NCBI GenBank assembly: GCA_028700655.1
Contig: JAQVSG010000001.1
Location: 40,507 to 104,506 of the forward strand
Length of the DNA: 64,000 nt
Origin: Caldisericia bacterium
GTDB lineage: Bacteria; Caldisericota; Caldisericia; UBA6126
Direction: 5' to 3'
Part shown: piece after piece, positions 2 to 61,761 of the stretch
Layout of the letters: every line of letters starts with the position of its first letter
Numbering within the stretch: the first letter of the stretch is position 1
Made by a program: the position numbers and the translations under genes
The notes under the pieces: model-generated
Seen by the model: only the letters and a program-made list of their open reading frames with translations
The model's database searches: none
What the model was told of the DNA's origin: nothing

Positions 2-2545
2 ATCAAGGGACGAACTATGGTCCCTTTGCGATGTATCGCCGATTGTTTTAGCGCTGATATTCAATGGGAGGGTTCAACCCAAGTCATTACACTAAAAGCG
101 TACCGTTTGCAACCCTCTCTATCGAAAAGCGATGTCGTTGTAATGCAATCGACGCCGTCTGCCACAACCCAAGAAATATTTACTTCCAAAGCCAATCTAC
201 CTTCTTATGTTTTATCCTGTCAAGAAAATGAAGAGGGTCTTTTCGTAGCCACAAAGTTTGGAATTCATCATTATAACAACGGAGAAGAAGTGTCTTTTAT
301 GTCTTATCCGGAAGAATTCAATAGCCAATTTTTATCCTATGATCCTGAAAAGTTTTTCTTTGCTGTTCACGAAGATTACTTTATAATTCCAAACCATCAG
401 GGTGTTTATCGGATGCACCGTGATACCCATGAATGCTCTCTTTTTCTTTCGCAAGAAGAAACCGATTTGTTGGTCGTGGCAAAAGACCATTATTACCGCA
501 TCGAAGAAATGCTCATTCACGATGATTTGTTGTACATTTTATGCGCACGTAATGGCATCATGGTATACAATGTTCATACCCAAGAATATCTTTATACACT
601 GGGTATTCTGTATGGAACTTCTATGGCCTTTTCAGACCCCTATCTTGTGATTACTACATTGTTTGGTGACTTAATGGTGTACAATGTGTCTGAAAAAACC
701 TTGCACACTTGTGAACTTCACAATCTCTACGAAAATGGGAAAGTAGCTTTTGAAAACGATACTACACTAGCGTTGTATGATTTATACGATGAAGAAGAAT
801 GGATTTCTCTTTCATTTGAAGAAGTTGTATCACAAGATTCTATAGATATGGAAGAATGGGAAGCAATATCTTCCTTTTCGCGCTTTCGTGGAGCTTTATG
901 TTATATTGCCAGTGGACCTTCTCATTATGGAATTGCTATGGATTCTACGGGAGGGGTGTTGGATTTCACAACCGAAATCGTTCAAGTTGATTTTAAAAAG
1001 GCCAAGATTGACTCTGTCATTGAGGACGATATTACGGATTGCAAACGGATTCGAAATTGGATCCCAAACCCTACAAATGTAAGAATCATAGCAGATTGCA
1101 ATCGACTGGTTTGTGCGCAAGATTCACCAGGGAACCAAGATACGGTGTTTTATACACAGGAAGACAAAATCACCCGTCACACCCTGAAAACCTCAAAGAA
1201 TCCTATGTTTTCTCAATCGTTTGGGTATGCTTGGAAAGACAATTCCTATTCAGCACTGAATCTTGATATTGATTTTGAAGGGGAGGAAATGATCTTGTAT
1301 TTATTGTTGGATGTGACTGATTTTAGTGAAGATAAGCCGAAGCACAAAGGCCCTTACAAAGTGAATGTTGGCACGGGAGATTTTTCGGTGTCTTCGTACG
1401 CATTTTCTGACGATTATTTGGTAATTCATGATGCCTTTAAGAATTCACTCCTTTGGTTTGATATTTCCTCCCATGATCTTGAAAACCGACAATATTGTAT
1501 ACCCCAGGACAAAAGGGATGTTCCACTTTCTATCTCCAACCTAACCATGGTAGATGACGTAGTGTACTTTCTAGACCCTGTAGGGAAAGCGATGTATTCT
1601 TCAACATTAGAAGAGGGCTTCACGAAAATAGTAGATTTATCTGCGCATACTCGTTTTCTAAAAGTGGACAACCTTGTCGTTGACGGGGAATTCTATTATA
1701 TATATGATGTGCTCTCCAATAGCATTATAAAATGCAATGATCGAGAAGTTTTGAGCTGGATTCCAGCCACATCCGTTGGGGCTTCCACTGTACAGTCTTT
1801 GGATATATCGGCATCACATATTCTGTACCATGATTCTTTGGCTGGTATTGTTGCTATGAGTACGTTTGACGATGCTACCGAAACGATACATTCCGACGAT
1901 GACATTTACTTTTCATCCAATGCCCTATTGTACGACTTTTACCCGGGCATGAAGAGTACTGAACATATAGGGGTATACGTGAAAAAACCCTTTAAAAATC
2001 TGCAAATAGAAACCAATAACAAAGAAATTCAAATCGGAGAGATCCAACAAAAACAATCCCAGATTCTTGCTTTGACAATCACTCCTACCCAAGAAAAAAA
2101 CCTGGAAATAAAAGTCATTGTTGATGGATTCGAGAAAGTTTTTCCCATACACATGAAGCAGAAAGAAATGTTTGTTACACTTTTTGACCAGTCTATTTTT
2201 ACCCATACTTGGAAAGGGTGCTGTTGGTCAAAAGTACCCTGTGTTATTCAAGAAAAACAACAGTTCTGTTGGATTGATATTGCCCTTATGGAACAATTGT
2301 TTCCTTGTGAGATTTATGCCAAAGAAGACGTGTACTTTCTTTCTTTTGAAGGTATTACGCTAGAAGCGCAACCAAATGAATCGTGGTACATTTATCAAAA
2401 CAAGGAAGGACAACGATATCGAAGAGATGGCGTCTTGTTTCAGAAAAATGACGACAATGTAACCATTGAGCCCACCCTATATACAACATATAGAAAAGGA
2501 AGAATCAAAAGAAGTACCCATTCTGTTACCATTTCCGGATTGTAA
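2..2545 (+). CDS. Surface protein, 5' end outside the window: CuAO-N-like domain, beta-propeller-like repeats, degenerate CuAO-N-like C-terminus
   Basis: The ORF track gives 17..2545, but the frame is open back to base 2. IKGRT-MVPLRCIADCFSADIQWEGSTQVITL is the second half of the NGRT(F/M)xPLRFxAExxGAxVxW motif. Blade-like motifs: LYILCARNGIMVYNV, FYYIYDVLSNSIIKCND, VVYFLDPVGKAMYSS. The C-terminal FCWIDIALMEQLFPCEIYAKEDVYFLSF parallels IWLSLQDLQTLFPMRYTIKEDTITIQT of the next protein. Confidence 0.75.
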   Translation: MKGRTMVPLRCIADCFSADIQWEGSTQVITLKAYRLQPSLSKSDVVVMQSTPSATTQEIFTSKANLPSYVLSCQENEEGLFVATKFGIHHYNNGEEVSFMSYPEEFNSQFLSYDPEKFFFAVHEDYFIIPNHQGVYRMHRDTHECSLFLSQEETDLLVVAKDHYYRIEEMLIHDDLLYILCARNGIMVYNVHTQEYLYTLGILYGTSMAFSDPYLVITTLFGDLMVYNVSEKTLHTCELHNLYENGKVAFENDTTLALYDLYDEEEWISLSFEEVVSQDSIDMEEWEAISSFSRFRGALCYIASGPSHYGIAMDSTGGVLDFTTEIVQVDFKKAKIDSVIEDDITDCKRIRNWIPNPTNVRIIADCNRLVCAQDSPGNQDTVFYTQEDKITRHTLKTSKNPMFSQSFGYAWKDNSYSALNLDIDFEGEEMILYLLLDVTDFSEDKPKHKGPYKVNVGTGDFSVSSYAFSDDYLVIHDAFKNSLLWFDISSHDLENRQYCIPQDKRDVPLSISNLTMVDDVVYFLDPVGKAMYSSTLEEGFTKIVDLSAHTRFLKVDNLVVDGEFYYIYDVLSNSIIKCNDREVLSWIPATSVGASTVQSLDISASHILYHDSLAGIVAMSTFDDATETIHSDDDIYFSSNALLYDFYPGMKSTEHIGVYVKKPFKNLQIETNNKEIQIGEIQQKQSQILALTITPTQEKNLEIKVIVDGFEKVFPIHMKQKEMFVTLFDQSIFTHTWKGCCWSKVPCVIQEKQQFCWIDIALMEQLFPCEIYAKEDVYFLSFEGITLEAQPNESWYIYQNKEGQRYRRDGVLFQKNDDNVTIEPTLYTTYRKGRIKRSTHSVTISGL

Positions 2546-2555: not shown

Positions 2556-2587
2556 AGAAGTACCTTTTCCTATATTTGGAGGCTCTC

Positions 2588-5500
2588 ATGAAACGTGTAC
2601 AATCGTTTATTATTCTTGTATTGGTTTCATTGCTGTGTTTGTATCCTTTTTCTTTTGCAAATGCACAAGTAGACCCGTCCGTATTCTATGACATACTACC
2701 TTCTACATCCCAGGTGCATATACAAAGCACAAATCGACTGCGAACAAAAACGTTTCATCGAGTGTATTCTTCAGAACTTCTTGCGGTGGAGCCTTCTCAG
2801 CAAGGCAATCGAATTTCTTTAGGATCCCTACCTTCCTTCTATCAACCAGAACAACCCATTGTCCCTATGGATACCTTCCAAATACCTCTGCGTTCCAACG
2901 AGACTGTGTCCTATATTAAAACAGTTTCTATGAAGGTTCAAAAAATGCCTTTGTTAAATATTCCCTTAGAGGTTGCCCAAAAACCTGTGCCCATTCATGA
3001 GCTTGCTTCCCCTTATAACGGAGAGCCTTTTGGATACGATACTGGTTCACGAGTGTCTTCGCCAGAACGGCATGTGGTAACAGCCCAAGAGATTCAAACC
3101 GTATTTCCCAAAGATAACATTCAGTTCATTATTTCGGGTCATTCTTCAGATCGCTATGCACGTATTACTTGTTTTCCTGTTTTTCTATGCAAAGGAGATT
3201 TGTATTTAGTAGAAAAATATACATTTGAGATGGGAATTACCTCCAGCGTGTATACTACTTCCAAGGAATCGTCAAAAAAGGCAATCATACTCGCTCCTGA
3301 CGAGTTTCAAAAAGAAGCCCAAGAGCTACAGGAAATTCAAGAAGAACGAGGATATTCATCAAAAATTGTACTTTTGTCTAGCATACAAAGTTACCCTCCT
3401 CTAGAAGCGCCTAGTTACCCTTCTGTGTCGGGTTTTTTGGAAGTATCGGAATCGATTCGAAGCAGAGTTTCTTCTTACGACTACAAACTTGCTTTTAAAA
3501 TCCGATCCTATCTGAAAGAAACCCTAGAAGACGAAGGCATTGGTTACCTCACCATTCTAGGCGATGCTACCTGTGTCCCCCCCTCTTACTATATGCTTTC
3601 TCCCGACCGTAGAAACAGTTACGATCAATGGGTACCCACCGATATTTATTATGCATCCCCTCATGGAGATGGCATTGAAATACCTATGGAAATTGCTGTT
3701 GGAAGACTTCCTGTTCGAGACAAGAAAGAAGCTGCCGCTGTTGTTGAAAAACAAAAACTCTATTCTATGCTTTTGAACAAGGATTCTTCCTGGACTTCAA
3801 AGGCTACCATAATGGCTGGTGCTCCTTTTGGAGAACACTTTTTAGGAGAATTGGCAACCGCACGAAGCGTTAATCTAGGCTATTTTTCTTCTCTTCAAGT
3901 AGAAAAACTATATCGCACCGAAAATAAGTTCCATAAAGATGAATTTATGCGTGTGTTAAACGAAGGGAAAAGAGGTTTTTTATGGGCGTTTGGACATGGA
4001 TCTGGAGAAGGACTTGCCCTAGAACCAGGATATGCAAATGCCAAAGATATTTTATCCGTTCCTCAAAAATCCTCCTTACCCATTGTGTTAAGTGAAGCCT
4101 GTGGCAATGGAGCGTGGGACAATCGTTTGGCAAGCGCTCCCTTTAAAAACAACACCGACTATGCCTATCCCACAAGTTTTTCCGAGGCAGTTGTCCTGTC
4201 TAAAGGTGCAGGGATTGCTTATGTGGGCGGCGCTCGAGTGAATTATGCTGGGTGGTCTTTGTCCTATCAAAATGGAATTGCTCAGCTGAAGGCCATTCAT
4301 TATATGGATGCAATCTTGGAGTATTTCATGAAAGGTTTTTCAGAAGGTGAAGGTGCCTTGGGCGATTGGGCTCTGAAAGCCATGACATACTATGCTGACG
4401 AACAGTTAATGTGGGGAATGAATGGGGCCAATGTGAAGACCTATTTTGGATTTACTTTGCAAGGAGATCCCACCATTGAGTACCCCGATTTCGATCGAAA
4501 ATCGGATTCAAGCGTTCCCGCAATTCAACCTATTGAATCGCAACCACAGGACTATCGAAATTGGCCTTTGTTTTCCATTGACGATGGACAAGAAGTTCGA
4601 GTCCAATCCAATGAAGAGAGGTTGCGAGTTGTAATAGCCGATTATACAAATATGAGTACTCCTTTTGTAGAAGAAGCGGAATCCATTGAATGCAGCAATG
4701 GAATGCACCAACAGAAATTTGATGATTTTGATAAAAAAACGTATGCTCTTCGATTTATTACGCCCGATCAAAAAGAACAACGTATTGTTTTTCATGGTCG
4801 ATACAACCATGATGTTGTCATCCAACCTTCTGCTGTTCAATCTGTCATGCGGTTAGGAGAAACCCGTTCTCAGTATGCCGTTATTCGAAATGACGGAATT
4901 TACCCTGTTACAGAATGCGATATTGTATGCAAAGAAGATACTAAAGAAATACACAGAAAATCATTCACCTCAATTCCTGTTCTCTCTGAAAAACTATTTT
5001 ATTACACCATAGACTCCAGCAATGTGGGGCATAAGGCATTTCTCTTAGAGACACAGAACCTACAAAACGAATCCAATGAAGTGGACAATACCTACCAATG
5101 GGATGTTCAATGCACCGATCAACCCTTACTTCGTGTGGGTGTTCTTACCGATGAGTCTGGTGTCAATAGCGACTATGTCAAGAGTGCTCTTGATTTATCG
5201 ATGTTGAATGCGTACTTTGCAGAACAAAATGAAGCCATCGAAATTACGCAGGTACCTTTCCAGTTTTATGCAGATGGTTCTTTGTCTTTTGAATCTCTTG
5301 GTTACGATGTTGTGGTCTTGTATACCAATAATTTTTCCCCTACCAATCCTCTTCAATCTTGCCAGGCGGCCTTGGAGCGATTCACAGAGCATGGAGGGGT
5401 AGTCCTAGGGATGCTGTGTCTGGGTCAATCTAACAATGGAGTGAATTTACAATCGATACAATCTTTTTTTGGGATTGATCCCGAGGAATACTTTCAATTG

Positions 5501-8500
5501 TATCGAACCTCCGTATCCGACACTGAAATTGTATTGAAAGGAGAACACGAGACCTTCTCTTCAGCATATCAAATTCAAAACCGATATACCGTTTTACCAA
5601 AAGGAAGAAATTGGCATCAAATTCGTCGCGAAGATTCTACCGAATTGATTGCCATAGACGATAAAGGCTATGCTGCCTTGTTACGAAACAGAAACCGATG
5701 GTTCTATTCCGGATTTCTTTCACAAATTGATTTTAAAGACCAACCCGAATCACTTCATTTTTTCTTGGACCTTCTTCGTGCTGTTCGTAATGATTTTCCC
5801 AATGTTGCCCTCCAATCAGTCTCTGCAAATCCTCTTGTGCCTATTGTTGATGAAGATGTTGAGATTGTAGCCACCATTGTGAATACATCTCAGACAACCA
5901 TTAATTTCGGCACCATTCATGTGGGAGAGGCATACGTTGAGTTCCGACAACTGCTCCCCAGAGAGATTCGCGATGTATCTCTCTTCATCATCAATAAAGA
6001 AGTGGGGCAACACACCGAAAATGTTACAATAGACTGTATTCAAGATGAAGATAAAAGCGATAACGCCATGCAAATTGTATACCTTGTAGACAAGAAACCA
6101 GTAGCCTTGACAAAACCTTCTTTGGTGGTTGATGATATCTACGATTTCACCTCTTGTATGGAACTCTATGGAACGGTTCAACCTCCGGAAGCAACCGTGG
6201 TGTGGAACGGAAAATCGATCTCCTGCAATGACGATGGAAGTTTTGTGCTCGTTGTTGACCAAAAAGGTCTTGACCGTATTCTTTTACACCCCATGATGGG
6301 AGATATTGAAGGAGATACTGTGGAGGTTCCCTTGGAGTGGAACGAGGCACGTTCAATAGAAATGCACCTTCATGATAAAAGGGCCGTAGCAAATGGAACA
6401 CGAATCACTTTACAACAACCCTATCAGTTGGTGAGCGGACAGTCTTATTTTCCTCTACGAGATGTAGTAGAAGCATTGGGCGGATCTATTTCCTGGAACT
6501 CCGCCACAAGAATGGTTTCTATTCACATGGAACAGTCTGAGTTGCAATTTGTACCGGGCGAGGAAGAAATTGTTGTCAACGGGAGTGTCAAAACTCTTAC
6601 ATACTTGCCTCAAATTATGGATGGAACAACGATGGTAAGTATTGATTTGTTGATGCATCTTCCTGAATTAACGGCGACTGTGTACTCTCCTTCTCAAGCA
6701 TTGCGAATTTCATCATCGCTACGCATGCACCATGAAAACCCATCGATTGTCTTACACCCCAAACAATACCAACAAGAAAACAAGAACCCCCCCTCTTTTC
6801 TAGGACGAACCCAGTATCCTGTGTCGATGATAACATGTTTTGATGTGTATGAAGAGGATCTATATATAAGTACCCCAACAGGCATATACCATATACAAGA
6901 ACAATCGTATGAATGCATATTTGAATACCCTTCCTTTTTATACCAGCAAATGCCGTCTTTTCTTTCGTACAGTCATACTGTCAACTCTATGTTTTTCCGT
7001 ATTCATAAAGACTTTATCTTCCTTGTACTGGATACCACTATATACATCTTTGATCGAAGTTCATCGCAGCTACATACATCGATTCAAAAAATGTCTACTG
7101 AAGCTTTTCTAGAACCTATTGAACACTACTCCACCATTGTGGATGTTGAAGTGGTGGGAAACACGTTGTATGTGCTGGATATTTATCAAGGATTTCTTTT
7201 GTTTGATATTGTCACTGGAGACCTGCTATCAACCTATTACATACCAAGCTATTTATACAGTTTTGAAGTGGTTGAAGATACCATTTATGCCTGTTCTTAT
7301 TGGGGCTATTTAGTTACTCTTCACCTGGATGGTTCGCATCTGCAAGAACGCGAATTGCCTGTGTCCTACTGTTATCGACTCTATATGCTAGATGCAACAA
7401 CTTGCCTCATTGGCTCTCTTCGGAATCCTACCAAGTTGTATGTTTTTGATGTATCAAAAGAGCTTCTTCTTCAAAAAGAAGAGAAGGATTTACAACTTGG
7501 TTTTGATTGGATTGATCAAGTGTCCATGTTTGGCAACCAAATCCTTGCTTTGGGATATTCGTACCAGTCACAGAGAACACTTGCTTTGCAAAGCGGGTTG
7601 TTTTCTTTGGATCGAGACTTATCTCCGGCCTCTATATATAGATATCTGGAATCAGAAGCGCAAGAGGCAGAAAAGGATCCCCAATTTATTTCTCATGTTC
7701 GATCTCTTCATCCCATTCCAAACTCTCCCTATCTTTCCATCGAACAAGGATTTCCCTATAGCGACCAAAAAATACGATTGCTACATACGGAAACAGGAGA
7801 GATGAAAACTCTTTCTACAGGTTCCAGCCATCCTACGGTTGATTCCATATATGATACCTATTGGTTCCAAGATACTTATTCTATCTTGTTTTTAAATCAG
7901 GAAACCAGAGAGTACTGGTTCCGGCAATTCCAGATTACACAAGAGGGTAAAAAGCAAACACTTGTTTCTGAGAAGCTGCACATCGATTTTTCGTTGTTTC
8001 CTGATCAGTTGGCTGTGAATGCGAATGGATTTTGTATTTTAGATCAGTACCAATCCACTTTGTTTTGGTTTGATTTTGAAGGAAAAGTTTTAGATCGTTG
8101 TCGGTTGCAATCGGGTGAAGTTACAATCCAAATTCCTTTGTCGTTTGAACAGTTTGACCTGGACGATGCAGATCAAGCTTACATATTGGATCCTCACAGC
8201 AAAGGAATCTTTGTTTACGATACGGCGGGTTTCCTATCTTTTGAGTCGCTTGCTTTTATAGGGAATACCTCTCATTTGAGCAGTGTTCTTTATGATGAAA
8301 AGGAGCGTTCTTTGCTAGATCGCCAACGTTCCTCTTTATATACCGTTTCGGATCAAATGACGCATTCTGTTTTCTTTCCTCCAGCCGATTACACGTCCAT
8401 TGGATGCTTTTCTCATTATCCAGACCGTTGGACTGTGTACGATGAAAAAACAGGACAGCTTATGGTTTGTCCCAAAGATCTTCCACCCTCTCCCCCTACC

Positions 8501-9232
8501 CCTCTTTCTGCAGAAGATATTACCGTGTTCCCAGATCACTTATCGTTTCTGGTATACCCAAATAAAACTTCTTCTGTAGGGCATTTTTCTGTGTCCATCC
8601 CAAAGTCCTACTCTGCACTTACGGTTCACCTCCCCACAGGAATATCTAGTTATCAGAAGCGATTTAATAGGGGGACAGATTCATTGTCAGGAAAACAGAG
8701 CTCGTTTTCCGTTCAGTTTTCTATAGAGGGTCTTGATAGTTTCAAGGAAGAAACAACGCTTGATATCATTCTCGAAATGGATTCTGTGCAAAAGCATATT
8801 CCTATTCAGATACAAACTGTATATCCTGCATGGGAATTCATGAACGGAACTCCTTTATTCAGAATAGGGAAGGCGTGCGTTGTGGGGCAATTATGCTCCC
8901 TAGTAAAGGATGAGCAGATTTGGCTTTCTTTACAAGATTTGCAAACTCTTTTCCCTATGCGCTATACCATAAAGGAAGACACGATAACCATTCAAACCGA
9001 AGTAGGGGTGTTTGTTTCTCCCCTAGATGGAAGACAAGCCACTTTTACAAACAACCAGGGTTCACTAGAAGCTTTTCCCGAAACGTTTGTTCAACCCGTT
9101 GGAGACAAGCATTATCTTGTACGCGCAGACCTTATTTTCAAAACATTGGGAGCTCGTATGACGTATACGGATTCCACCCAAGAAACAGTCCTTGTAGAAG
9201 GTTGGGAACTTGTGAGTTCGCCTAAGGTCTAA
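2588..9232 (+). CDS. Giant secreted multidomain protein: C25 (gingipain-like) cysteine peptidase domain, CARDB-like domains, CuAO-N-like domain, beta-propeller-like region, degenerate CuAO-N-like C-terminus
   Basis: The track start at 2576 is TTG. The ATG at 2588 is preceded by GGAGG (2578-2582) and gives the signal peptide MKRVQSFIILVLVSLLCLYPFSFANAQ. C25 landmarks: KKAIILAPDEFQKEAQELQEIQEERGYSSKIVLLSSI, YLTILGDATCVPPSYY, TDIYYASPHGD...AVGRLPV, WAFGHGSGEG (His), VLSEACGNGAWD (Cys). CARDB-like: NVALQSVSANPLVPIVDEDVEIVATIVNTSQ...DEDKSDNAMQI. CuAO-N-like: GQSYFPLRDVVEALGGSISWNSATRMVSI. Confidence 0.85.
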   Translation: MKRVQSFIILVLVSLLCLYPFSFANAQVDPSVFYDILPSTSQVHIQSTNRLRTKTFHRVYSSELLAVEPSQQGNRISLGSLPSFYQPEQPIVPMDTFQIPLRSNETVSYIKTVSMKVQKMPLLNIPLEVAQKPVPIHELASPYNGEPFGYDTGSRVSSPERHVVTAQEIQTVFPKDNIQFIISGHSSDRYARITCFPVFLCKGDLYLVEKYTFEMGITSSVYTTSKESSKKAIILAPDEFQKEAQELQEIQEERGYSSKIVLLSSIQSYPPLEAPSYPSVSGFLEVSESIRSRVSSYDYKLAFKIRSYLKETLEDEGIGYLTILGDATCVPPSYYMLSPDRRNSYDQWVPTDIYYASPHGDGIEIPMEIAVGRLPVRDKKEAAAVVEKQKLYSMLLNKDSSWTSKATIMAGAPFGEHFLGELATARSVNLGYFSSLQVEKLYRTENKFHKDEFMRVLNEGKRGFLWAFGHGSGEGLALEPGYANAKDILSVPQKSSLPIVLSEACGNGAWDNRLASAPFKNNTDYAYPTSFSEAVVLSKGAGIAYVGGARVNYAGWSLSYQNGIAQLKAIHYMDAILEYFMKGFSEGEGALGDWALKAMTYYADEQLMWGMNGANVKTYFGFTLQGDPTIEYPDFDRKSDSSVPAIQPIESQPQDYRNWPLFSIDDGQEVRVQSNEERLRVVIADYTNMSTPFVEEAESIECSNGMHQQKFDDFDKKTYALRFITPDQKEQRIVFHGRYNHDVVIQPSAVQSVMRLGETRSQYAVIRNDGIYPVTECDIVCKEDTKEIHRKSFTSIPVLSEKLFYYTIDSSNVGHKAFLLETQNLQNESNEVDNTYQWDVQCTDQPLLRVGVLTDESGVNSDYVKSALDLSMLNAYFAEQNEAIEITQVPFQFYADGSLSFESLGYDVVVLYTNNFSPTNPLQSCQAALERFTEHGGVVLGMLCLGQSNNGVNLQSIQSFFGIDPEEYFQLYRTSVSDTEIVLKGEHETFSSAYQIQNRYTVLPKGRNWHQIRREDSTELIAIDDKGYAALLRNRNRWFYSGFLSQIDFKDQPESLHFFLDLLRAVRNDFPNVALQSVSANPLVPIVDEDVEIVATIVNTSQTTINFGTIHVGEAYVEFRQLLPREIRDVSLFIINKEVGQHTENVTIDCIQDEDKSDNAMQIVYLVDKKPVALTKPSLVVDDIYDFTSCMELYGTVQPPEATVVWNGKSISCNDDGSFVLVVDQKGLDRILLHPMMGDIEGDTVEVPLEWNEARSIEMHLHDKRAVANGTRITLQQPYQLVSGQSYFPLRDVVEALGGSISWNSATRMVSIHMEQSELQFVPGEEEIVVNGSVKTLTYLPQIMDGTTMVSIDLLMHLPELTATVYSPSQALRISSSLRMHHENPSIVLHPKQYQQENKNPPSFLGRTQYPVSMITCFDVYEEDLYISTPTGIYHIQEQSYECIFEYPSFLYQQMPSFLSYSHTVNSMFFRIHKDFIFLVLDTTIYIFDRSSSQLHTSIQKMSTEAFLEPIEHYSTIVDVEVVGNTLYVLDIYQGFLLFDIVTGDLLSTYYIPSYLYSFEVVEDTIYACSYWGYLVTLHLDGSHLQERELPVSYCYRLYMLDATTCLIGSLRNPTKLYVFDVSKELLLQKEEKDLQLGFDWIDQVSMFGNQILALGYSYQSQRTLALQSGLFSLDRDLSPASIYRYLESEAQEAEKDPQFISHVRSLHPIPNSPYLSIEQGFPYSDQKIRLLHTETGEMKTLSTGSSHPTVDSIYDTYWFQDTYSILFLNQETREYWFRQFQITQEGKKQTLVSEKLHIDFSLFPDQLAVNANGFCILDQYQSTLFWFDFEGKVLDRCRLQSGEVTIQIPLSFEQFDLDDADQAYILDPHSKGIFVYDTAGFLSFESLAFIGNTSHLSSVLYDEKERSLLDRQRSSLYTVSDQMTHSVFFPPADYTSIGCFSHYPDRWTVYDEKTGQLMVCPKDLPPSPPTPLSAEDITVFPDHLSFLVYPNKTSSVGHFSVSIPKSYSALTVHLPTGISSYQKRFNRGTDSLSGKQSSFSVQFSIEGLDSFKEETTLDIILEMDSVQKHIPIQIQTVYPAWEFMNGTPLFRIGKACVVGQLCSLVKDEQIWLSLQDLQTLFPMRYTIKEDTITIQTEVGVFVSPLDGRQATFTNNQGSLEAFPETFVQPVGDKHYLVRADLIFKTLGARMTYTDSTQETVLVEGWELVSSPKV
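3260..4500 (+). other. C25/gingipain-like catalytic domain (approximate limits) inside the 2588..9232 CDS
   Basis: The putative catalytic His codon is at 3995-3997 (GHGS). The Cys codon is at 4100-4102 (SEACGNG), 35 residues downstream. Order and spacing resemble the clan CD His-Cys dyad of gingipains. Confidence 0.7.
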
Positions 9233-9244
9233 GAGTATAGAGGA

Positions 9245-10669
9245 TTACTTTTCAGACGTTCGTGGGGTTTTTTCCCAAAATTCTCTTTTCGCAGAGTAGG
9301 GTTTGTTTTGGAGTTTTTGATAAACAGAGAGTAAACTCCCACATATAAAGGGCAGTCCATATAGAAAACTGAAAAATGGCAATACAGTGACCATGTAGAG
9401 AGTGAGAAGAAAGAACTGAAATAGTTCGCAGACAGACCATTTATTGTATTGCATATAACGACGATAGCGAAGATACAAGGATTGTATAAATACGATACTG
9501 GTGCCCAAAAACAAGAAATACGAAACATCAAAACTAGAAATCGGAACACTTATTTTTTGGAGTGTATGGGATAGATAAAAAATAGAAAGGATTCCATATA
9601 AATACCACTCAATAGGACCCAGCAGAAACACTTTCCACAGCATCCAAGAGCGTTCTTTTGGGGTATGAAAAAAGGATTTGTTGGCATGCAATAGAACATC
9701 TATAATCCCTTTCCCCCAACGATATCGTTGAACAAAATAACCACGGAAATTGGCAGGAGTTTGTTCAGTACATACAATGGGAAGGAATTTTGGAATTGTA
9801 TTCCATTGATCCCATATTCGAATTCCCATTTCTATATCTTCGGTAGCACATGTAGCTTGAAAACCATGTAGATCTTGAATCATTGAATAGGGAATGTGCA
9901 TATTGGTTCCTCCTAAGAAAGGAATCCAACGCAACAGAGAAGGGAGTGTATAATCGTGAGAGAAAGCTTGGGCTAGAGCTGCAATTTTTGAAAACAAAGA
10001 AAGGTGCTTAAAATTACGTACTTGAAGAGCAGGTCCTTGCCAAACAGGCAGAGGCTCCTTTTTTGATGTGTGTTCTTGGATATACGAAAAAATGGATTCT
10101 TCTGCGTGTGTTTCTGCGTCAAAAAAACTACAGTAATGGTATGGATGTGAAAAGGAATGAACCGACAATGCATAGTTTAGGGCTCTTCCCTTGGAGGAGG
10201 GGATGAATTGATTTTTGTAGGAACCTGGAATCGTACCATCGTAGGTAATAGGAACATCTAAAATGTATATAGAGGGGAATGAATCCCCTTCAAAAAAAGA
10301 CTGATTTTTATCTTTGCCACTATTGGTTGGGTTGCAATTTTTTTCAATCCAGCGTTCCACCACCTTTCGAGTGGATTCATTTTTGTGGGCAATCGTTTCT
10401 TTTTGGTCTGTAATGAGGATGATTTCCTGTTTGTTTCTTGAATATTGTATCTGTAGCATGTTTTTGAGAGTGTTTGTGATGACAGAAGCTTCTTCTTTGG
10501 CAGGAATTAGAATGCTAAAGAACAGTTGATCATGAAGAGAAGAATAGAGAATTCTCTTGTCCGTATTTTTTTGGTAGGTACCCATGAGTACAAAAAAGAA
10601 AAAACGGATCGAAACCAAAAAACCGATGCTTGATAGGACTATATAAAGAATGTTTTGCCATGTATTCAT
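9245..10669 (-). CDS. Membrane-bound processive family-2 glycosyltransferase (polysaccharide synthase-like)
   Basis: 474 aa. N-terminal TM segment, ILIPAKEEASVI, SKGRALNYAL, FFDAETH (DxD-like), QRYRWGKG (QxxRW), C-terminal TM helices, ending FWEKTPRTSEK. Convergent with the previous gene, with a 12-nt gap. Confidence 0.85.
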   Translation of the reverse strand: MNTWQNILYIVLSSIGFLVSIRFFFFVLMGTYQKNTDKRILYSSLHDQLFFSILIPAKEEASVITNTLKNMLQIQYSRNKQEIILITDQKETIAHKNESTRKVVERWIEKNCNPTNSGKDKNQSFFEGDSFPSIYILDVPITYDGTIPGSYKNQFIPSSKGRALNYALSVHSFSHPYHYCSFFDAETHAEESIFSYIQEHTSKKEPLPVWQGPALQVRNFKHLSLFSKIAALAQAFSHDYTLPSLLRWIPFLGGTNMHIPYSMIQDLHGFQATCATEDIEMGIRIWDQWNTIPKFLPIVCTEQTPANFRGYFVQRYRWGKGIIDVLLHANKSFFHTPKERSWMLWKVFLLGPIEWYLYGILSIFYLSHTLQKISVPISSFDVSYFLFLGTSIVFIQSLYLRYRRYMQYNKWSVCELFQFFLLTLYMVTVLPFFSFLYGLPFICGSLLSVYQKLQNKPYSAKREFWEKTPRTSEK

Positions 10670-11370: not shown

Positions 11371-11937
11371 ATGAATTTAACCCGTAAAGAAGAAAAAGAA
11401 TTAGTACTACGAGCAAAGCAAGGAGACTCAGAAGCTATGACTGTAATCTACAAAGAATTTGAACAAGAAATCTTACGAGCCGCTTATGGAGTTACAAAGA
11501 ATCCTGACGATGCACAAGATGTTGCAGCGGAAGCATTTATGACATTTTTTCAGACCATTGATCGTTTTAATACCGACTACCCCATCCGACCTTGGCTTCA
11601 TAGAATTATGCACAACCAGGCCAATTCTATGTTTCGGAAAAAGAATCGCGTTATCAGCAGTGGGGATTGTTTTGATAACTATACAATGGAACATTCTTCT
11701 CAAACCGATGAAAACCTTTTTGAAGAAGAAGACGTATCGTTGTTAAAGAAAGCATTGAATTTGTTGTCCATAGAAGAAAAGAAAATTTTAACTCTTTTCT
11801 ATATTGAAGACTTTTCCATCACAGATTTATCCGTCACACTCAACATTCCGGAAGGAACGGTGAAGAGCCGTTTGTTCAACAGCCGCAAAAAACTAGCAAA
11901 AAAAGTCCAACTTTGCAAAAAAGGGGGTGGATTTTGA
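11371..11937 (+). CDS. ECF (sigma-70 family, group IV) RNA polymerase sigma factor
   Basis: 188 aa. Region 2: DAQDVAAEAFMTFFQTIDRFNTDYPIRPWLHRIMHNQANSMFRKK. Region 4: LSIEEKKILTLFYIEDFSITDLSVTLNIPEGTVKSRLFNSRKKL. Confidence 0.92.
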   Translation: MNLTRKEEKELVLRAKQGDSEAMTVIYKEFEQEILRAAYGVTKNPDDAQDVAAEAFMTFFQTIDRFNTDYPIRPWLHRIMHNQANSMFRKKNRVISSGDCFDNYTMEHSSQTDENLFEEEDVSLLKKALNLLSIEEKKILTLFYIEDFSITDLSVTLNIPEGTVKSRLFNSRKKLAKKVQLCKKGGGF

Positions 11938-14177
11938 ACACCTGTAAACATGTAGAAAAATGGTTACGAGATCATCCTCAAGAGTCTTTGCCAAAATGGA
12001 TACAAAATCATATTCAAGGATGTTCTTCTTGTAAGCAGATTGTAGAGTCTTCTTCTCTTCTTCATACTTTTACCCCGGTTTCGCCTTCTTCAGCGCAATA
12101 CTCTTTCTCGCCAGAATTGGATTGGAAAATACGAAATTGTATCTATACAACGTCTGAAACGTTAAAAAACTCTCAAAGAATCGCGAAAAAAACAGTTTTC
12201 TATTTGCACCGAGGATTTGTCGCGACTTTATCGGCAATATGTTTAATAGTAGCTGTTTTTTTTATGGTACCTGTGGCCAACCAGAATACGACCTACTCTC
12301 TTTTGTTGAACGAGAAGTTTAAAGAAATGATGCAAACGCCTTCTTCTGTTTTTATGATGGAAGTAGATACCATGGAAACAATGGATGACCACTTGCAATT
12401 TGCACGTTACTATTGCGAAACAAAAGAAGAGCGGGAATTCTTATATAGCAATAATGAAGATAGTCGCAACAAACTCCTTTTTGTGAAGTTTTTAGGAATG
12501 CAGTCGGACGTATCGTATTTACAAATCTATCAATATGCACGAAATGATCTGTACTTTCAAGCTATACGAAAGGCCAAGCTTCCTCTTTGGAAAACTTGGA
12601 GAGAGTTTTCTTCCTATATTGAGCAATACACCTTGCTTCCGGGGCAACCCTTTGAATCTTTTGATGCCACTGTTTTGTCTGTGGATTATGCAACAGGAGC
12701 GATAAAAACGGATGTATTTACAGACCCCTTGTTTGCTGATTTTATTATCATGCAACAAGTAACTCCCTTTCGTACTTATCATTTCACAGTGAAAACAATA
12801 TCCTCACAAAACAACATTGTTGCTATTGATTTGCCTCGAGAAAACGATACTTCTTTGCAAGGAAAATTACTTTCTGTTACCAAAAATACAATACGACTGG
12901 AAGGATTCCCAGAGGATCTTTTTGTCAGTGAAAAAGTTCTTCATGATGAAACAGCAAATTCTTATCTTGAAAATGGGGAGTATGTATTTGTTCGTATTGC
13001 ACAAACCAACCAGAACCAGTGGGTTGTTACCTCTTTATCAGTATTACAAGAACCTTCTCCAAGAACTCTAACGGGAAAAATTGTTGAGGTGTACCGCAAC
13101 GGATTTGTCTTAGAGAACCTTGGAATGAGCTTTTTCTTTTCTTCTCCCACCACACCTACCATTTCTCAATATGATATTATTACTGTGCAAGGATTGGATT
13201 ATGGTTCCTTTTTCGTAGTTGAAAAGGTGCTTTCAATAGCCCCCTTCATAGAGGAAAAAGAAGACTATTATTTAGCTTCTCACAAGGAAGAAAAAACCAT
13301 TGCACGAGAGCCTGTTTTTACCCCTCCAAACAGATCCATATCGTCTCCTTCTCCTGTAAATCCTCCCGATCAAATGCCATTAGAAAGTGATATCGTCGTG
13401 GGTATCGATAAGGACCAGTATTATTTTTTAAGCGGGAAAACAGTTCCCAAAGATCAGCTTTCACAATCCCTATCCGCCGGTGAATCTATTCGATATCAGA
13501 GAGAGCAGAACAACATTACCATTCAACGACATTTTATGAATCAAACGCAAGTGGTGCAGTTTACTGTAGAATTTTTAGAACGGTTGCCCAATGGCATTGA
13601 AATTTATCATGCTCCACAAGATGGAAGTCGCATTTATGTCTTCCGCTCTTCTATGGCAGACAAAGGAAATGTTTCTGTGTTTCAAGGAAACGTGGTTTCC
13701 TATGGAACCATTCATATTGCTTTGGAATGGAGAATGTTTTCCTTATCCACTCTTGTCAACATTCAAGCTGTTGTTACTAAAGAAATTGAACGGAACTCTT
13801 TGTATCAATTGGATAATGGCTGTGTGCTAAAAATAGATGATTTCACAGAAATACAGGGCCATGTTCAAGTTGGGAAAACGGTAAAGATTTCGGGTCAATA
13901 TGATCAAAACGTTCTCCGTGGGTATATTGTCCGCGTGGAAAAAGAAATTTTTATGATGCAAGGAGAGATTGTTGATTGGAACAAGGAGCAAAAATGGTTT
14001 CTTTTAGACTCGGGTGTTGTCATTCAAATCCATGAAGCCACTATTTTTCATGGGCAGGGTGTATTAGGAGAGGGCATCTTTGTGTACTGCAAAGTATATC
14101 TGAAAGAAGGTCAATACGTTGCCTCCGATATTGCATGGGAAGAAAACTCAATTCCCGGAACAGGAGACCGCATATGA
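11934..14177 (+). CDS. Anti-sigma factor (zf-HC2 type) with one TM segment and a large extracytoplasmic domain
   Basis: The track start is TTG at 11913. I prefer the in-frame TTG at 11934, which follows AAGGGGGTGG (11921-11930) and overlaps the sigma stop as TTGA. N-terminal HIQGCSSC (Hx3Cx2C). TM segment FVATLSAICLIVAVFFMVPV. About 630 aa lie outside the membrane. Confidence 0.8.
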   Translation: MNTCKHVEKWLRDHPQESLPKWIQNHIQGCSSCKQIVESSSLLHTFTPVSPSSAQYSFSPELDWKIRNCIYTTSETLKNSQRIAKKTVFYLHRGFVATLSAICLIVAVFFMVPVANQNTTYSLLLNEKFKEMMQTPSSVFMMEVDTMETMDDHLQFARYYCETKEEREFLYSNNEDSRNKLLFVKFLGMQSDVSYLQIYQYARNDLYFQAIRKAKLPLWKTWREFSSYIEQYTLLPGQPFESFDATVLSVDYATGAIKTDVFTDPLFADFIIMQQVTPFRTYHFTVKTISSQNNIVAIDLPRENDTSLQGKLLSVTKNTIRLEGFPEDLFVSEKVLHDETANSYLENGEYVFVRIAQTNQNQWVVTSLSVLQEPSPRTLTGKIVEVYRNGFVLENLGMSFFFSSPTTPTISQYDIITVQGLDYGSFFVVEKVLSIAPFIEEKEDYYLASHKEEKTIAREPVFTPPNRSISSPSPVNPPDQMPLESDIVVGIDKDQYYFLSGKTVPKDQLSQSLSAGESIRYQREQNNITIQRHFMNQTQVVQFTVEFLERLPNGIEIYHAPQDGSRIYVFRSSMADKGNVSVFQGNVVSYGTIHIALEWRMFSLSTLVNIQAVVTKEIERNSLYQLDNGCVLKIDDFTEIQGHVQVGKTVKISGQYDQNVLRGYIVRVEKEIFMMQGEIVDWNKEQKWFLLDSGVVIQIHEATIFHGQGVLGEGIFVYCKVYLKEGQYVASDIAWEENSIPGTGDRI

Positions 14178-15835
14178 AAAGACTTTTTCAAATCATAACA
14201 ACAATCTATCTAACCGCACTCTTTTTCGTACCCATGCCTATGTCATTGCATGCAAACGAAGCTTCATCTGGATCGATTCGTCCTGTCCAAAAAACGCAGT
14301 GTAGGGTTTTGTTAAGCAATTACGAAAAAGGGGAGATAACCTCTATGGAATTTCGTCTTTCGCTTTCAGAAAACCCCATACTGGCCGAATCTTGGATTAC
14401 AATACTACTACCAGAATCGTACACGATCCCAGAATTGTTCCGGGAAGATTTTGTTTTCTCTGATACGGTTGCTTTACAGGTTCAAAGGAAGGGAAACAAT
14501 AACATACGAATTCAAACCCCTATCGATATTTCTGAAATCCTTACCATATCTATTTCTCACTATGCGGGGATTCAAAATCCATTGGAAGAAGATACTTTTG
14601 TATGTACTCTTCTTGTAGAATCTTGGGAGGAATTTTTTGAATCGGATTCTATACACCTTATTTCTCCTCAGAATTCCGTATTCTATGAAATACAAAACAA
14701 AATCAAAGCAAATCAACATGGATGGATGTCAGAAATACCAATCCTTCAATTGTATTCCAAAAAAGGAACCGAATTGTATGTTGCCTGGAATGAGGATGAA
14801 TTTCACAAATTGGAAAACCGTATTATTACAATACCCGAAGGGATTCATCGTTGTTCTTTTTATGGATTGCGCCCTTCTGGTCTAAAAGAAGAGATACAGT
14901 CTGTTCTTTGGAAAGTGGATCCGTATCCACCGTCCTGTATTGATGTTTCTCCTTCTCATCGAACCTGGATCAATACGCAAGATCCTTTGGTAAAATTTCA
15001 GATCACCTCCATTTCACCTGCTTTTCTTGTTATATCAGAAGAAGCATATCCTGTTCTAAACAATGAAGTGGAAATACCCTTGTCATTGAATCCTGGGAAG
15101 AATACTGTTTCTTACAGCATTGTCAATCAAGCGGGTCATAGTATCTCTGACGAACTCACTCTTTTTGTGGATATTACTCCTCCTGTTATTACCTTGTACT
15201 CCCCTTCAGAAGAACAGATATATTGCGGATACCATATGATTGTCAATGGAAAGACGGAGCCAGGATGCCTTTTATCTGTCAATGGGATAAAGTTAGAGAT
15301 GGACGCATATGGGAACTTTGCAACGGAAATTCCTATTGCGGAAGGAAAGAATAATGTTATTGTGCGCAGTGAAGATCGGGCAGGGAATGTTACGATCATC
15401 AGTAGAACCTTTTTTCACTATGCAGGGACTGTTTTTGAAATCCAATTGTCTCATCAGAAAGTTTTTTTGAATGAAAAGGAAATCTCGGTGGATCCATTTC
15501 CGTTTCGCGATCCCCAAAATGGCGAAATATATGCTTCCATTCGATTGTTTACGGAATCACTGGGGTATTCTTTACGATGGGATTCAAACTTAAATGCAGC
15601 TATACTAGACAAAAATGGAGTTTTGATTTATGTTCGACCCAATGATTCCATCATTAAAGTGTCTCAAGGAGACAATGTTGAAGAAATAGATATCTATTAT
15701 GCCCCCACCATTGTCGATGGCGTTATTTTTGTACCCATTGAATTTACGAAGAAAATACTTGGTTCCGAAGTAAAATACGATCCAAAACATGAATCTATTT
15801 TTATTATATTTTGTCCCGAAAGGAGTGAGAAATGA
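14174..15835 (+). CDS. Secreted surface protein: one FP-NP module plus the shared C-terminal cassette (OmpL47-like, Ig-like, CuAO-N pair)
   Basis: The ATG at 14174 (AGGAG at 14162-14166) overlaps the anti-sigma stop as ATGA. Signal peptide MKRLFQIITTIYLTALFFVPMPMSLHANE. Module exit ISHYAGIQNPLEEDTFVCTLLV. Ig-like DITPPVITLYSP...VIVRSEDRAGN. CuAO-N: GEIYASIRLFTESLGYSLRWD and DGVIFVPIEFTKKILGSEVKYD. Confidence 0.85.
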   Translation: MKRLFQIITTIYLTALFFVPMPMSLHANEASSGSIRPVQKTQCRVLLSNYEKGEITSMEFRLSLSENPILAESWITILLPESYTIPELFREDFVFSDTVALQVQRKGNNNIRIQTPIDISEILTISISHYAGIQNPLEEDTFVCTLLVESWEEFFESDSIHLISPQNSVFYEIQNKIKANQHGWMSEIPILQLYSKKGTELYVAWNEDEFHKLENRIITIPEGIHRCSFYGLRPSGLKEEIQSVLWKVDPYPPSCIDVSPSHRTWINTQDPLVKFQITSISPAFLVISEEAYPVLNNEVEIPLSLNPGKNTVSYSIVNQAGHSISDELTLFVDITPPVITLYSPSEEQIYCGYHMIVNGKTEPGCLLSVNGIKLEMDAYGNFATEIPIAEGKNNVIVRSEDRAGNVTIISRTFFHYAGTVFEIQLSHQKVFLNEKEISVDPFPFRDPQNGEIYASIRLFTESLGYSLRWDSNLNAAILDKNGVLIYVRPNDSIIKVSQGDNVEEIDIYYAPTIVDGVIFVPIEFTKKILGSEVKYDPKHESIFIIFCPERSEK

Positions 15836-18800
15836 AATCCATACGTTTATTTACAAAGATACGAACGGTTTTTTTCGTCGTTTTGTTTGTGTTCACCACT
15901 CTCATTCCATTGTATGCGAAAGCAGCCGTTACAAGAATCGAAGTAAGCCCCAATGTACAGTGTATAAAAATTGGCGAATCCGTTACTTTTACAGCAACTG
16001 CCTATGACGAAAATGGGTCGGTTGTACCAGAGGCGACATTTCGTTGGTACCAGGAAGGACCCGGAACGGGTTCTCCTTCTTCCAATACGCGTTCTTACAC
16101 TTTTCGGGCAACCAGTTCAGGTCAAGTCCAAATGTTTGTCTCCTCGGGGGACACAAAACTTGTTTTTCGATTTGATGTGGGAGCTACCCAAGTTCGCGAT
16201 GTTCAAATACGGGTGGAACCCAATACTGCCGGAGAACTAGCGAATTATACCGTCATGTTTTACACAGATGAATGTGGGAAATTAAGTCCTGGTGATAAAA
16301 TATATTTGGCTTTTCCCTATGGAACAACCTTTGCCCGTTATTCTGGGTGCGATGCAGTTACCGTGAACGGTATACCCGCTTCCTATTACGTGGAAACCGA
16401 TAAAAATGACAATCAAATTGTCTCGATCACGGTACCCAATTCCTACCCCGACACAACCCTTGTCTATATACGAATATGCCGCGTGCAAAATCCTCGAGGA
16501 GGAGCTTGCTATCGTATGGCTGCAGCCACTAGCAAGCAGCCTTATTGGGCTCTTTCCAACAGTTATGCGATTGTAGGCTCCATCATTACCACTCCCACCG
16601 TAGAAGTAGCCCCCGATATTGTAGGGGAAATAGCGGCATATACCATTCGATTTGAAACCTCTTCAACGGGACGATTGGGCAGTTGTTACGGGGGGTATAT
16701 CATGGTGGAGTTTCCTTATGGCACCAAAGTGCCTACCACTATTGCGGCGGAGCACATTTTGGTGAACGGACAGTATTGTAACGATGCCGACCCTGTTATA
16801 AACGGACGAGTTGTGAAAATATACCCAGGCATGGTTGTGCTAGAAGAGTCCGATGTAAAAGTAGAGTTTCTTTTAGAAGCCGGGATTACCAATCCAACAA
16901 GTTCGGATCAATATCGTTTGGTTGTGTGGACTAATGCCGACAATACAAGGGTCAATTCAAATTACTACAAAATACGCAACAGTGTTATCCAAGATGTAAA
17001 AGTATGGATTGACAAACCTTACATCAATACAAAATCGGAATGGAGAATCACTTTTCAAACTGGCTTAGTGGGGAGAATGAGAGAAAATGGAATCATTACG
17101 ATCTATTTTCCTTCTTCTGTTCGTTTCCCAGAATCATCAGTTCCTGGGGATATTAAGGTAAATGGGGTGCCCACCACAAAACCTGCCATTATCGAAGGAG
17201 CAGGGACATTGAAAATTCAAACCCCAGTTCTGTTTGAAGCACAGAGTCCCGTAGAGATTGTTATAAAGGAAGAGTTTGGTCTTACCAATCCTACATCGGT
17301 AGGTCGATACACCATTAAAGCGCACACAGGGAAAGAAGGAACCAATGTAGAATCCCAAGAATTTGAAATCGGTCCTAGCATGATTGGTGATCTGTCTGTT
17401 CGTATTGGATCTCCTTTTGTATCTGTGAATACATCGATTCAACTCACCTTTACAACGGGTGGTGGTGGTCAACTAACATCGGACAATGGGCAAGTGTATC
17501 TCATTATGCCCCAAGGAATGTATATCCCCAATACAATGGCAAAAGATAGTGTATTGATCAACAATGTTCCCATGAAAACAACACCTTTTTTGAAAAAGGC
17601 AGAGAATCGAATCATTCTCAATGTACCCATTGATATAGGTCCTGAAGCAGTAGTGACAGTCGACTTTTTACAAGAAGCAGGATTGCGAAATCCGGTCACA
17701 CCGGGTGAGTACATTTTTCGAGTGGCCACCAATCGAGAGGTATCTTACATTTCCTCTCCCAAAATTTGGATTCAAGAATCAAGGGTGCAAAATGTCTCTG
17801 TGGATGTTTTGTCCCGTACTGTTGAGCAACCAGCTTCTTTACATATTTCCTTCAAAACCGGCCCCGCTGGTTTTTTGAGTGCGGGAGAAAAAATATTTGT
17901 GTTTTTGGACACTCGTTTCCAGTTTCCCACCGATTATCAACACGGCATTCTATTCAATGAAATAAACGTAGACCTGTTTCCAGTTTTTCTAAAACCCAGC
18001 GAAGGCATGATACAGATTACCCTTCATGAAAACATCGAACCTCTCGAAACCGTTGTTATTCAAATCACTCCTGAAGCAGGCTTTGTGAATCCTTCACAAG
18101 AAGGTGCTTATACATTGGGTGTTTCTACGCAAAGTGAAACACAAACCGTAGCTTCTGAGCCTTTTTCGATTATTCCTTTACCAAAAACAAACATTACCAT
18201 TGAACCTACTTTCCCCGATGGAGATAACCAATGGTATGTGTCCAAGCCAAACATATCCTTCGATGTGTATTCCCAAGAACCAGAATCGATTCAAACCTGG
18301 TTTTCGTTAAATGGGGAAGATTGGATTTTGTATCAAGAGACTCTTGTTCTATCTTCTGGAATATACGAAATACGGTATTATTCGACACAAGGGGATGCAA
18401 AAGAGGAAATCCAATCCATACCCATTAAAATTGACACCTTCCCTCCCTATATACAACTACCCGAAGGCCCCATTTTTACCAATCAACCGATCTACCCATT
18501 TTCGGTTACTATTGTCGAATCTCATTTTCTTAAGGGTATGATTGGAGAGCATGAAGTACTCTCTCTTGTCGAGGGTCAAATGAAGGCGAACTTACGGCTT
18601 GAAGAAGGGGACAATGAATTCTCTATTTTGGTATATGACGAGGCGGGTCATCGAAGTGAAACAACGGTTGTTATAGTTTTAGATCAAACTCCTCCCACGC
18701 TTCAAATTAGCAAACCGTCTCCCTGGCAAAAAACAATTCGGAAAACAATTCCTATTGATGGATATACAGAATCAAATGTGGATGTAACCCTGAATGGAAA

Positions 18801-33366: not shown

Positions 33367-33409
33367 CGACTTGTTGTAAAGTTTACTCCTACAACGAAGG
33401 AGGAAGGAC

Positions 33410-52291: not shown

Positions 52292-52299
52292 AAAAAAAG

Positions 52300-61557: not shown

Positions 61558-61579
61558 TCTTTCTTTCCTATTTCAATTT

Positions 61580-61653: not shown

Positions 61654-61761
61654 TATCTCTTCGGAATTCTCTTTTTTCCATCCTGCATTTTTTGGAATTT
61701 GGCCTATACTATTGCCATACTTGAATATAATATTGTCCCTACGACTGAAAGGAGATTGGGC

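Follow-up and report, generated by a model that had tools for sequence, protein, structure and literature searches.

Does a 2,214-residue protein encoded near the start of a 64,000-nucleotide stretch of Caldisericia bacterium DNA (the window, to which all coordinates refer) include a working relative of the gingipain proteases, and what might such an enzyme do on the surface of a bacterium outside the Bacteroidota? Gingipains are major virulence factors and PorU is a sortase-like enzyme; to our knowledge, the characterised peptidases of family C25 (i.e., the gingipains and PorU) are all from Bacteroidota and dependent on the type IX secretion system (T9SS), and literature searches agreed with this. 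A preliminary description of the gene, made from the letters of the sequence, had proposed a gingipain-like C25 cysteine peptidase fused to CARDB, CuAO-N and propeller modules. The open reading frame (ORF), listed from 2576 to 9232, has its ATG at 2588, with GGAGG six bases ahead of it, and a database protein of equal length was identical to the product throughout. Residue numbers below are those of this protein, P-numbers denote database proteins and L-numbers database loci of relatives. The results indicate that the front end of the protein is a real relative of C25 peptidases and, judged by its sequence, probably an active enzyme.

Residues 233 to 631 matched the Pfam model of Peptidase_C25 (PF01364, cut-off 23 bits) from position 2 to position 373 of 374, with an E value of 4.6e-41 and a score of 141.7 bits, which for a sequence match is far beyond chance. 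A search with hidden Markov models (HMMs), proposed as a check in the preliminary description, thus returned a significant match over the full model, and every motif quoted there from the N-terminal third was found in its place (IILAPDEF at residue 233, ILGD at 323, GRLP at 372, GHGS at 469 and SEACGNG at 502). The top matches in the PDB of a C25-domain profile, built from 27 sequences that included archaeal and planctomycete relatives (alignment A3), were RgpB (4ief_B, E = 1.8e-10; 1cvr_A, E = 7.9e-10) and PorU (6za2_A, E = 2.9e-8). An AlphaFold2 model of residues 1–1180, built on 35 family sequences with a mean predicted local distance difference test score (pLDDT) of 85.3, was compared with PDB structures by Foldseek, and here the best matches were RgpB (4ief, E = 1.8e-17, target TM score 0.64) and Kgp (4rbm, catalytic plus immunoglobulin superfamily (IgSF) domain, E = 5.8e-16, TM score 0.58). 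The fold part of a second suggested check, structure prediction, accordingly came out on the side of the gingipains. A single-sequence phmmer search of PDB sequences with the C25 region returned nothing relevant, and the relationship to the gingipains is therefore remote. By HMM match, by the order and context of the predicted dyad and by predicted fold, the protein belongs to family C25, clan CD, of Pfam and MEROPS, and HMM, profile-to-PDB and fold data bear out the proposal of a C25 peptidase with attached modules.

The predicted catalytic residues are His470 and Cys505, the codons of which (Table 1) lie exactly where they had been placed in the preliminary description, 35 residues apart as compared with 33 in RgpB. 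Their suggested correspondence to His211 and Cys244 of RgpB was confirmed by the profile-to-PDB alignment, in which GHGSG fell on YTGHGS (His211) and SEACxNG on DVACVNG (Cys244). Both residues were unchanged in 35 of 35 homologues and in 26 wider relatives (archaeal, planctomycete and other distant), and the same invariance was noted for Glu421 in the 35 homologues and the wider set, as well as for the flanking motifs. In the predicted structure, a beta-strand ends just ahead of His470 (464–468) and of Cys505 (499–502; mean pLDDT of the 10-residue blocks 88 and 90, respectively), and this placement fits an active site of clan CD.

Residue 412 (window 3821–3823), in the GGDPF motif ahead of Glu421, is the one point from which a case could be made for a catalytically dead C25 pseudo-enzyme that serves as a binding scaffold only, as this position, near the predicted active-site loop (block pLDDT 72), is acidic (Asp) in most paralogues but Ala here and in the nearest orthologues (P0001–P0006). 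As distant relatives differ at this position too, it does not define the family; with Ala in this clade and variation elsewhere, it was ruled out as a conserved member of a catalytic triad. Candidate counterparts of a third catalytic residue in RgpB, by the sequence alignment, are Glu152, Glu161 and Asp163. Given that His470, Cys505, Glu421 and the motifs around them are invariant throughout the family, we regard a dead enzyme as extremely improbable. The pattern of sequence conservation along the protein is relevant here. Thus, identity in the C25 domain was 89% to the nearest orthologues and 40–53% to distant paralogues, whereas the propellers and CuAO-N modules were only 15–20% identical in the latter. 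The C25 domain ranked first in conservation, the Ig-like (immunoglobulin-like) domain second and an alpha/beta domain (residues 835–1066) third. High conservation of the C25 domain together with divergence of the C-terminal modules is a pattern that fits a working enzyme.

The C25 domain is preceded by a beta-sandwich that had been overlooked in the preliminary description, together with the alpha/beta domain and a Glucodextran_B-like domain. Single BLASTP high-scoring segment pairs, unbroken between residues ~70 and ~635, passed through the parts of P0034, P0035, P0037, P0038 and P0040 in which PF08126 (Propeptide_C25) exceeds its threshold, and among the matches listed the C25 domain begins near residue 200–250 in almost all of 150 relatives. 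On such collinearity of sequence, the N-terminal domain (residues ~40–220) is probably a propeptide of the C25 type. The Pfam scan with PF08126 gave no direct match in this protein and matched one of ten family members (E = 0.018), and a profile search of PDB sequences and per-member Pfam scans with the N-terminal domain gave matches at noise level only. On the other side of the C25 domain lies the Ig-like beta-sandwich; Foldseek alignments to the catalytic plus IgSF domains of RgpB and Kgp cover 527–537 columns.

The core is followed by approximately 1,500 residues which, in the predicted models, are modules of binding or anchoring type; the propellers and the C-terminal part were read from a second predicted model. 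The two CARDB-like domains that had been proposed are beta-sandwiches in the model, and PF07705 scored above threshold at roughly matching positions of P0007, P0019 and P0023, although there was no direct Pfam match in this protein; the second of them also gave a weak profile match to a 'cell surface protein' (PDB 2l0d). Positions of CARDB and Glucodextran_B in paralogues were matched to the protein by residue number and are hence approximate. Between the CARDB-like domains is the alpha/beta domain, which accompanies the C25 domain in all relatives of ~2,200 residues and for which a profile search of the PDB and per-member Pfam scans returned noise only. The proposed CuAO-N domain was recovered directly as PF07833 at residues 1268–1355 (67.6–68.8 bits, the higher being the score for this match, against a gathering score of 24.2 bits), and its region gave a profile match to the N-terminal domain of Escherichia coli amine oxidase (E = 6.5e-7).

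The long propeller-like region of the preliminary description resolved into two propellers of about 24 strands each in the model, with the three motifs quoted for it at residues 1527, 1815 and 1864 and with Foldseek matches to tandem-propeller proteins at E values of ~1e-15; on the predicted structure, assignment to six-bladed propellers of NHL/YWTD type holds at the level of the fold only. A per-domain Pfam scan of this protein found no CuAO-N match at the C-terminus. The C-terminal domain nevertheless proved, as had been suggested, to be a degenerate relative of the internal CuAO-N domain when sub-profiles of the family were compared by hhalign (probability 95%, E = 4.1e-8; negative control 0.8%). 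By model and hhalign, a disordered linker at residues 1383–1401 parts the protein into two units, each with a CuAO-N domain at its end. Apart from the three domains missed, the earlier list of domains (C25, CARDB, CuAO-N, propeller and degenerate C-terminal CuAO-N) was thus essentially right.

Full-length relatives of ~2,200 residues with the same layout were found only in metagenome-assembled genomes (MAGs) of Caldisericota/Caldisericia and in one MAG labelled Calditrichota with the same synteny; several MAGs carry two or three paralogues. The MAG labelled Calditrichota (DAIMET01) has three paralogues (L005, L013 and L015), the first of them in the gene order of the window and 61% identical, and its taxonomic label is probably wrong. 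Beyond the Caldisericota, the core of putative propeptide, C25 and Ig-like domains is all that is shared, at 27–35% identity, by proteins from archaea (Thermoplasmatales, Methanobacteriota, Altarchaeum and Bathyarchaeia), Planctomycetota, Spirochaetales and Cloacimonadales. Among 1.84 billion representative proteins, 513 matched at E≤1e-3 and 153 at E≤1e-30, so that by sequence the subfamily is small. A scan of genome contigs with the single protein found no relatives, whereas an alignment-based scan found them. Some homologues are already named 'C25 family cysteine peptidase' by NCBI.

Similarities to and differences from known systems were evident at several levels. The protein shares its Pfam family with the gingipains RgpB and Kgp of Porphyromonas gingivalis (MEROPS C25, clan CD; 1CVR, 4IEF and 4RBM), which are its best structural matches and have the same order of a prodomain (here a prodomain-like N-terminal domain), a catalytic domain and an Ig-like domain. 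Precursors of RgpA and Kgp are likewise large, with long non-catalytic C-terminal extensions. In contrast, identity to RgpB and Kgp in the structural alignment was 12–13%, the link being visible by profile only; the host belongs to the Caldisericota instead of the Bacteroidota; the extensions consist of CARDB, alpha/beta and CuAO-N domains and two propellers as opposed to haemagglutinin/adhesin repeats; and the protein ends in a CuAO-N-like domain rather than a T9SS C-terminal domain. Pfam reported no T9SS C-terminal domain family on this protein or its neighbours. Judged by sequence, the protein thus falls outside the gingipains proper, i.e., the T9SS-secreted RgpA, RgpB and Kgp.

PorU, the signal peptidase and sortase that acts on T9SS C-terminal signals (6ZA2), shares the C25 catalytic domain, was the third-best PDB sequence match and offers a precedent for a C25 enzyme at the cell surface that transpeptidates co-secreted cargo. 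Its architecture is unrelated beyond the C25 domain, and equivalence to PorU was rejected: the NCBIfam model of PorU (NF033707) scored 32.4 bits against a cut-off of 420 bits, with a match limited to residues 366–514. A T9SS was not evident either, as T9SS C-terminal domain matches were absent from the protein and its neighbours and BamA is missing from the related cultured species Caldisericum exile. The closest relatives outside Caldisericota are short proteins composed of a propeptide and a C25 domain, with or without an Ig-like domain, from archaea, Planctomycetota, Spirochaetota and Cloacimonadota (P0037, P0038, P0040 and L019–L033). These are collinear in their N-terminal, C25 and Ig-like domains with residues ~70–730 of the protein (27–35% identity) but have 570–1,100 residues and lack the alpha/beta domain, the CuAO-N domains and the double propellers, although some have a beta-helix, Laminin_G or CARDB; no characterised example among them turned up in the literature. 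Finally, secreted CuAO-N ('copper amine oxidase-like') proteins, including neighbours of the gene, share Glucodextran_B plus CuAO-N. The module is C-terminal in those proteins, whereas the canonical CuAO-N is internal here and a second, degenerate copy stands at the C-terminus. Literature searches on Caldisericota C25 peptidases, on C25 enzymes outside the Bacteroidota and on CuAO-N anchoring found nothing directly relevant.

Contrary to the preliminary description, which had placed the gene at the head of its locus, another C25 gene precedes it in tandem and is truncated by the start of the window. The frame upstream, listed as an ORF at 17–2545, is open from base 2 and was 63% identical to residues 1358–2205 of P0027 (2,205 residues). 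P0027 and P0029 (2,098 residues, apparently without the N-terminal ~110) both contain C25 and CuAO-N. A separate gene of 842 codons, paralogous to the C-terminal third of the protein, was thus rejected as an explanation for this ORF in favour of the tail of a full-length C25 paralogue of ~2,100–2,200 residues. Orthologous loci have a complete paralogue of 2,205–2,210 residues immediately upstream (full-length in L001 and L003), and that of L001 (2,205 residues) matched PF01364 (E = 1e-41) as well as PF07833. The tandem giants are approximately 25% identical to each other, with the dyad kept in both. Only 42 nucleotides separate the two genes in the window, and co-transcription is therefore probable.

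Related Caldisericota MAGs retain the tandem pair (L001, L003, L004, L005 and L016). The gene order in L001–L005 is C25-A, C25-B, a family 2 glycosyltransferase (GT2) on the opposite strand, GAF, an extracytoplasmic function (ECF) sigma factor, a single-pass protein resembling an anti-sigma factor and CuAO-N proteins of 566 and 1161 residues; where contig ends cut the locus short, as in L004 and L016, the beginning of the cluster is likewise retained. This order is maintained among orthologues down to ~42% identity. Upstream of the C25 pair, L001 has aspS and two unknown ORFs. Downstream in the window, the locus further comprises a second GT2, an AAA_14/DUF4143 ATPase and proteins of 3,612 and 2,546 residues, beyond which lie nusA and infB. 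Signal peptides were noted on all large proteins of the locus. The Glucodextran_B plus CuAO-N module is C-terminal in four of the neighbours and internal in the C25 protein; the large neighbours, judged by eye, end directly in CuAO-N and have no obvious cleavable C-terminal sorting motif. Distant paralogues of the same architecture (L012 and L014) occur alone among guaA, recO, alanine racemase, a GH3 enzyme and similar genes.

Table 1. Features of the C25 gene, its product and its surroundings in the window.
Feature	Residues	Window position	Strand	Basis
3' part of upstream C25 plus CuAO-N paralogue (last 847 codons)		2..2545	+	Cut by window edge; 100% identical to P0029 residues 1252–2098
Complete C25-family multidomain gene (2,214 residues)		2588..9232	+	ATG 2588, stop ends 9232; 100% identical to P0001
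Sec-type signal peptide, MKRVQSFIILVLVSLLCLYPFSFANA/Q (…FSFANA/Q)	1–27	2588..2668	+	Read by eye from sequence; helix 2–18 in model
N-terminal beta-sandwich, disordered loop 140–159	~40–220	2705..3247	+	Model; collinear BLASTP with PF08126 relatives
C25 catalytic domain	231–632	3278..4483	+	Pfam, profile against PDB, Foldseek
Predicted catalytic His470, codon CAT (GHGSG)	470	3995..3997	+	Invariant; aligns with RgpB His211
Predicted catalytic Cys505, codon TGT (SEACGNG)	505	4100..4102	+	Invariant; aligns with RgpB Cys244
Ig-like beta-sandwich	660–750	4565..4837	+	Model; same position as gingipain IgSF domain
CARDB-like beta-sandwich 1	753–830	4844..5077	+	Model; PF07705 in paralogue P0023 (728–812), roughly corresponding
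Alpha/beta (flavodoxin-like) domain	835–1066	5090..5785	+	Model, alignment A4, conservation
CARDB-like beta-sandwich 2	1073–1168	5804..6091	+	PF07705 in P0007 (1062–1157) and P0019
Glucodextran_B-like beta-sandwich	1178–1260	6119..6367	+	Weak direct match (E = 0.035); PF09136 roughly there in P0019 and P0023
Cu_amine_oxidN1 (CuAO-N) domain	1265–1379	6380..6724	+	Pfam PF07833; profile match
Beta-propeller 1, about six blades	1417–1686	6836..7645	+	24 strands in fours in model; weak PQQ-propeller profile match
Beta-propeller 2, about six blades, NHL-like	1704–1970	7697..8497	+	Model; NHL-repeat profile matches (E ~ 1e-3)
Beta-sandwich without family match	1979–2079	8522..8824	+	Model
Degenerate CuAO-N-like C-terminal domain	2081–2204	8828..9199	+	hhalign of sub-profiles
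Convergent membrane GT2 glycosyltransferase		9245..10669	-	Pfam; syntenic with C25 pair in L001–L005
Four secreted proteins (566, 1161, 3612 and 2546 residues)		14135–19317, 22528–33366, 33410–41050	+	Each ends in Glucodextran_B plus Cu_amine_oxidN1

The role that we favour for this protein, and consider moderately likely, is that of a secreted, envelope-retained C25 endopeptidase under the control of its propeptide, acting as a general surface protease. With regard to zymogen control, anchoring and substrate range, we infer that the protein would be exported via the Sec pathway and that its N-terminal domain of ~200 residues would be a C25 propeptide and keep the enzyme latent, as in gingipains, until cleavage after export activated it. 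The CuAO-N modules, which are carried by every large secreted protein of the locus, would keep the protein on the cell envelope by non-covalent contacts, and the propellers and beta-sandwiches would bind substrates or envelope partners. The enzyme would then cut extracellular or envelope proteins, possibly including itself, in the manner of the RgpA and Kgp polyproteins. The expression 'cell-anchored' in the preliminary description is plausible, its sole basis being the assumed attachment to the envelope by CuAO-N. The tandem pair is conserved and the family is of Caldisericota type and multi-copy, and a general surface protease is therefore preferred over a dedicated maturase.

Several observations weigh against this role. 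Assignment of the propeptide is transitive only, and comparison of the N-terminal domain with P0034 by hhalign gave a weak probability of 25%; no paper demonstrating an anchoring role of CuAO-N was found; approximately 70% of the protein is non-catalytic in the predicted models, so that its main role could be structural; and the tight synteny of orthologues with the tandem paralogue, GT2, ECF sigma/anti-sigma and CuAO-N genes leaves room for a function specific to the locus. A function of the latter kind had been suggested in the preliminary description, in which the protease might process or mature the neighbouring giants or take a ligase-like part in the assembly of a surface polymer. In its fullest form, the C25 pair would be a dedicated maturase or sortase-like transpeptidase comparable to PorU, either processing the giant CuAO-N proteins next to it or ligating them to one another or to a glycan made by the GT2 enzymes, and would thereby build the outer non-lipid layer of the Caldisericota. 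The support for this claim was circumstantial: the order of the cluster is conserved in L001–L005; Glucodextran_B and CuAO-N are also common to the C25 protein and the giants at 22528–41050, and PorU is among the best PDB sequence matches. Against it, distant paralogues with the same architecture stand alone among housekeeping genes, the neighbours end in CuAO-N with no obvious cleavable tag by eye and the PorU model failed. RgpB, moreover, outscored PorU in the profile search, and there was no evidence of a transpeptidation acceptor. We thus regard a dedicated role of this kind as unlikely.

Another idea is that the protein is primarily a structural or adhesive component of the envelope (a sheath, an S-layer-like coat or an adhesin) and that its C25 domain cuts only its own polyprotein, as in the adhesin complexes of RgpA and Kgp. 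About 1,500 of the 2,214 residues are non-catalytic folds of binding type, the linker at 1383–1401 yields two units that each terminate in CuAO-N, the family is multi-copy within single MAGs, and all large proteins of the locus have signal peptides. A lattice-forming protein, however, would be expected to conserve its modules, and the opposite was seen, the catalytic domain being much better conserved than any other part and the modules diverging fast; in addition, relatives outside the Caldisericota retain only propeptide, C25 and Ig domains. A primarily structural role is on these grounds quite improbable. More far-reaching, and highly doubtful, is the proposal that the tandem C25 giants, GT2 enzymes, ECF sigma/anti-sigma pair and CuAO-N giants together form a new assembly system for the 'outer-membrane-like', BamA-less envelope of the Caldisericota, with the C25 domains serving as PorU-like transpeptidases that cleave and cross-link sheath proteins. 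If such a system existed, it would be a T9SS-independent and possibly monoderm counterpart of gingipain and PorU chemistry.

Novel features are the architecture, the tandem duplication and the setting outside both the Bacteroidota and the T9SS. The enzyme family is known and its layout here uncommon, but the system is not of a new kind; no characterised example of such a C25 protein turned up in the literature. The same core of a putative propeptide, a catalytic domain and an Ig-like domain, with an intact dyad, occurs in a deep-branching and barely cultured phylum. The family would be a tractable entry point to the role of C25 enzymes beyond the Bacteroidota and to the construction and upkeep of the odd envelope of the Caldisericota. 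Were it to serve nutrition alone, the surface protease would be one more ordinary member of a family already known.

Other genes of the neighbourhood were noted in passing. The two GT2s, at 9245–10669 (- strand) and 19211–21142 (+ strand), both match Glyco_trans_2_3 and are ~35% identical to each other, the first lying 12 nucleotides from the C25 gene; two such enzymes in a cluster of surface-protein genes suggest synthesis of a surface glycan or glycosylation of proteins. The second GT2 ORF as listed shares its first ~106 nucleotides (19211–19317) with the end of the ORF of 1161 codons, and its true start is probably further downstream. At 11371–14177 (+ strand), an ECF sigma factor of 188 residues is followed by an overlapping gene for a protein of 754 residues, both syntenic in L001–L005. 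In the latter, the N-terminus is rich in Cys (HIQGCSSCKQ), a single transmembrane segment lies at ~100–120 and a large part is extracytoplasmic; the protein resembles an anti-sigma factor and could regulate the surface-protein cluster. The giant neighbours also match DUF2808, with weak matches to PKD, Y_Y_Y and BslA. Between the second GT2 and the giants is the AAA_14/DUF4143 ATPase (21265–22455, + strand), a 24%-identical homologue of which lies directly upstream of the C25 paralogue in L013 (258–1301); its position next to C25 genes may be coincidence or a recurrent association. At gathering score, the only families returned by an Rfam scan of the window were three tRNAs, i.e., a tRNA-Met (CAT) at 52299–52373 (- strand) and two adjacent tRNA-Pro (GGG and CGG) at 61480–61654 (+ strand).

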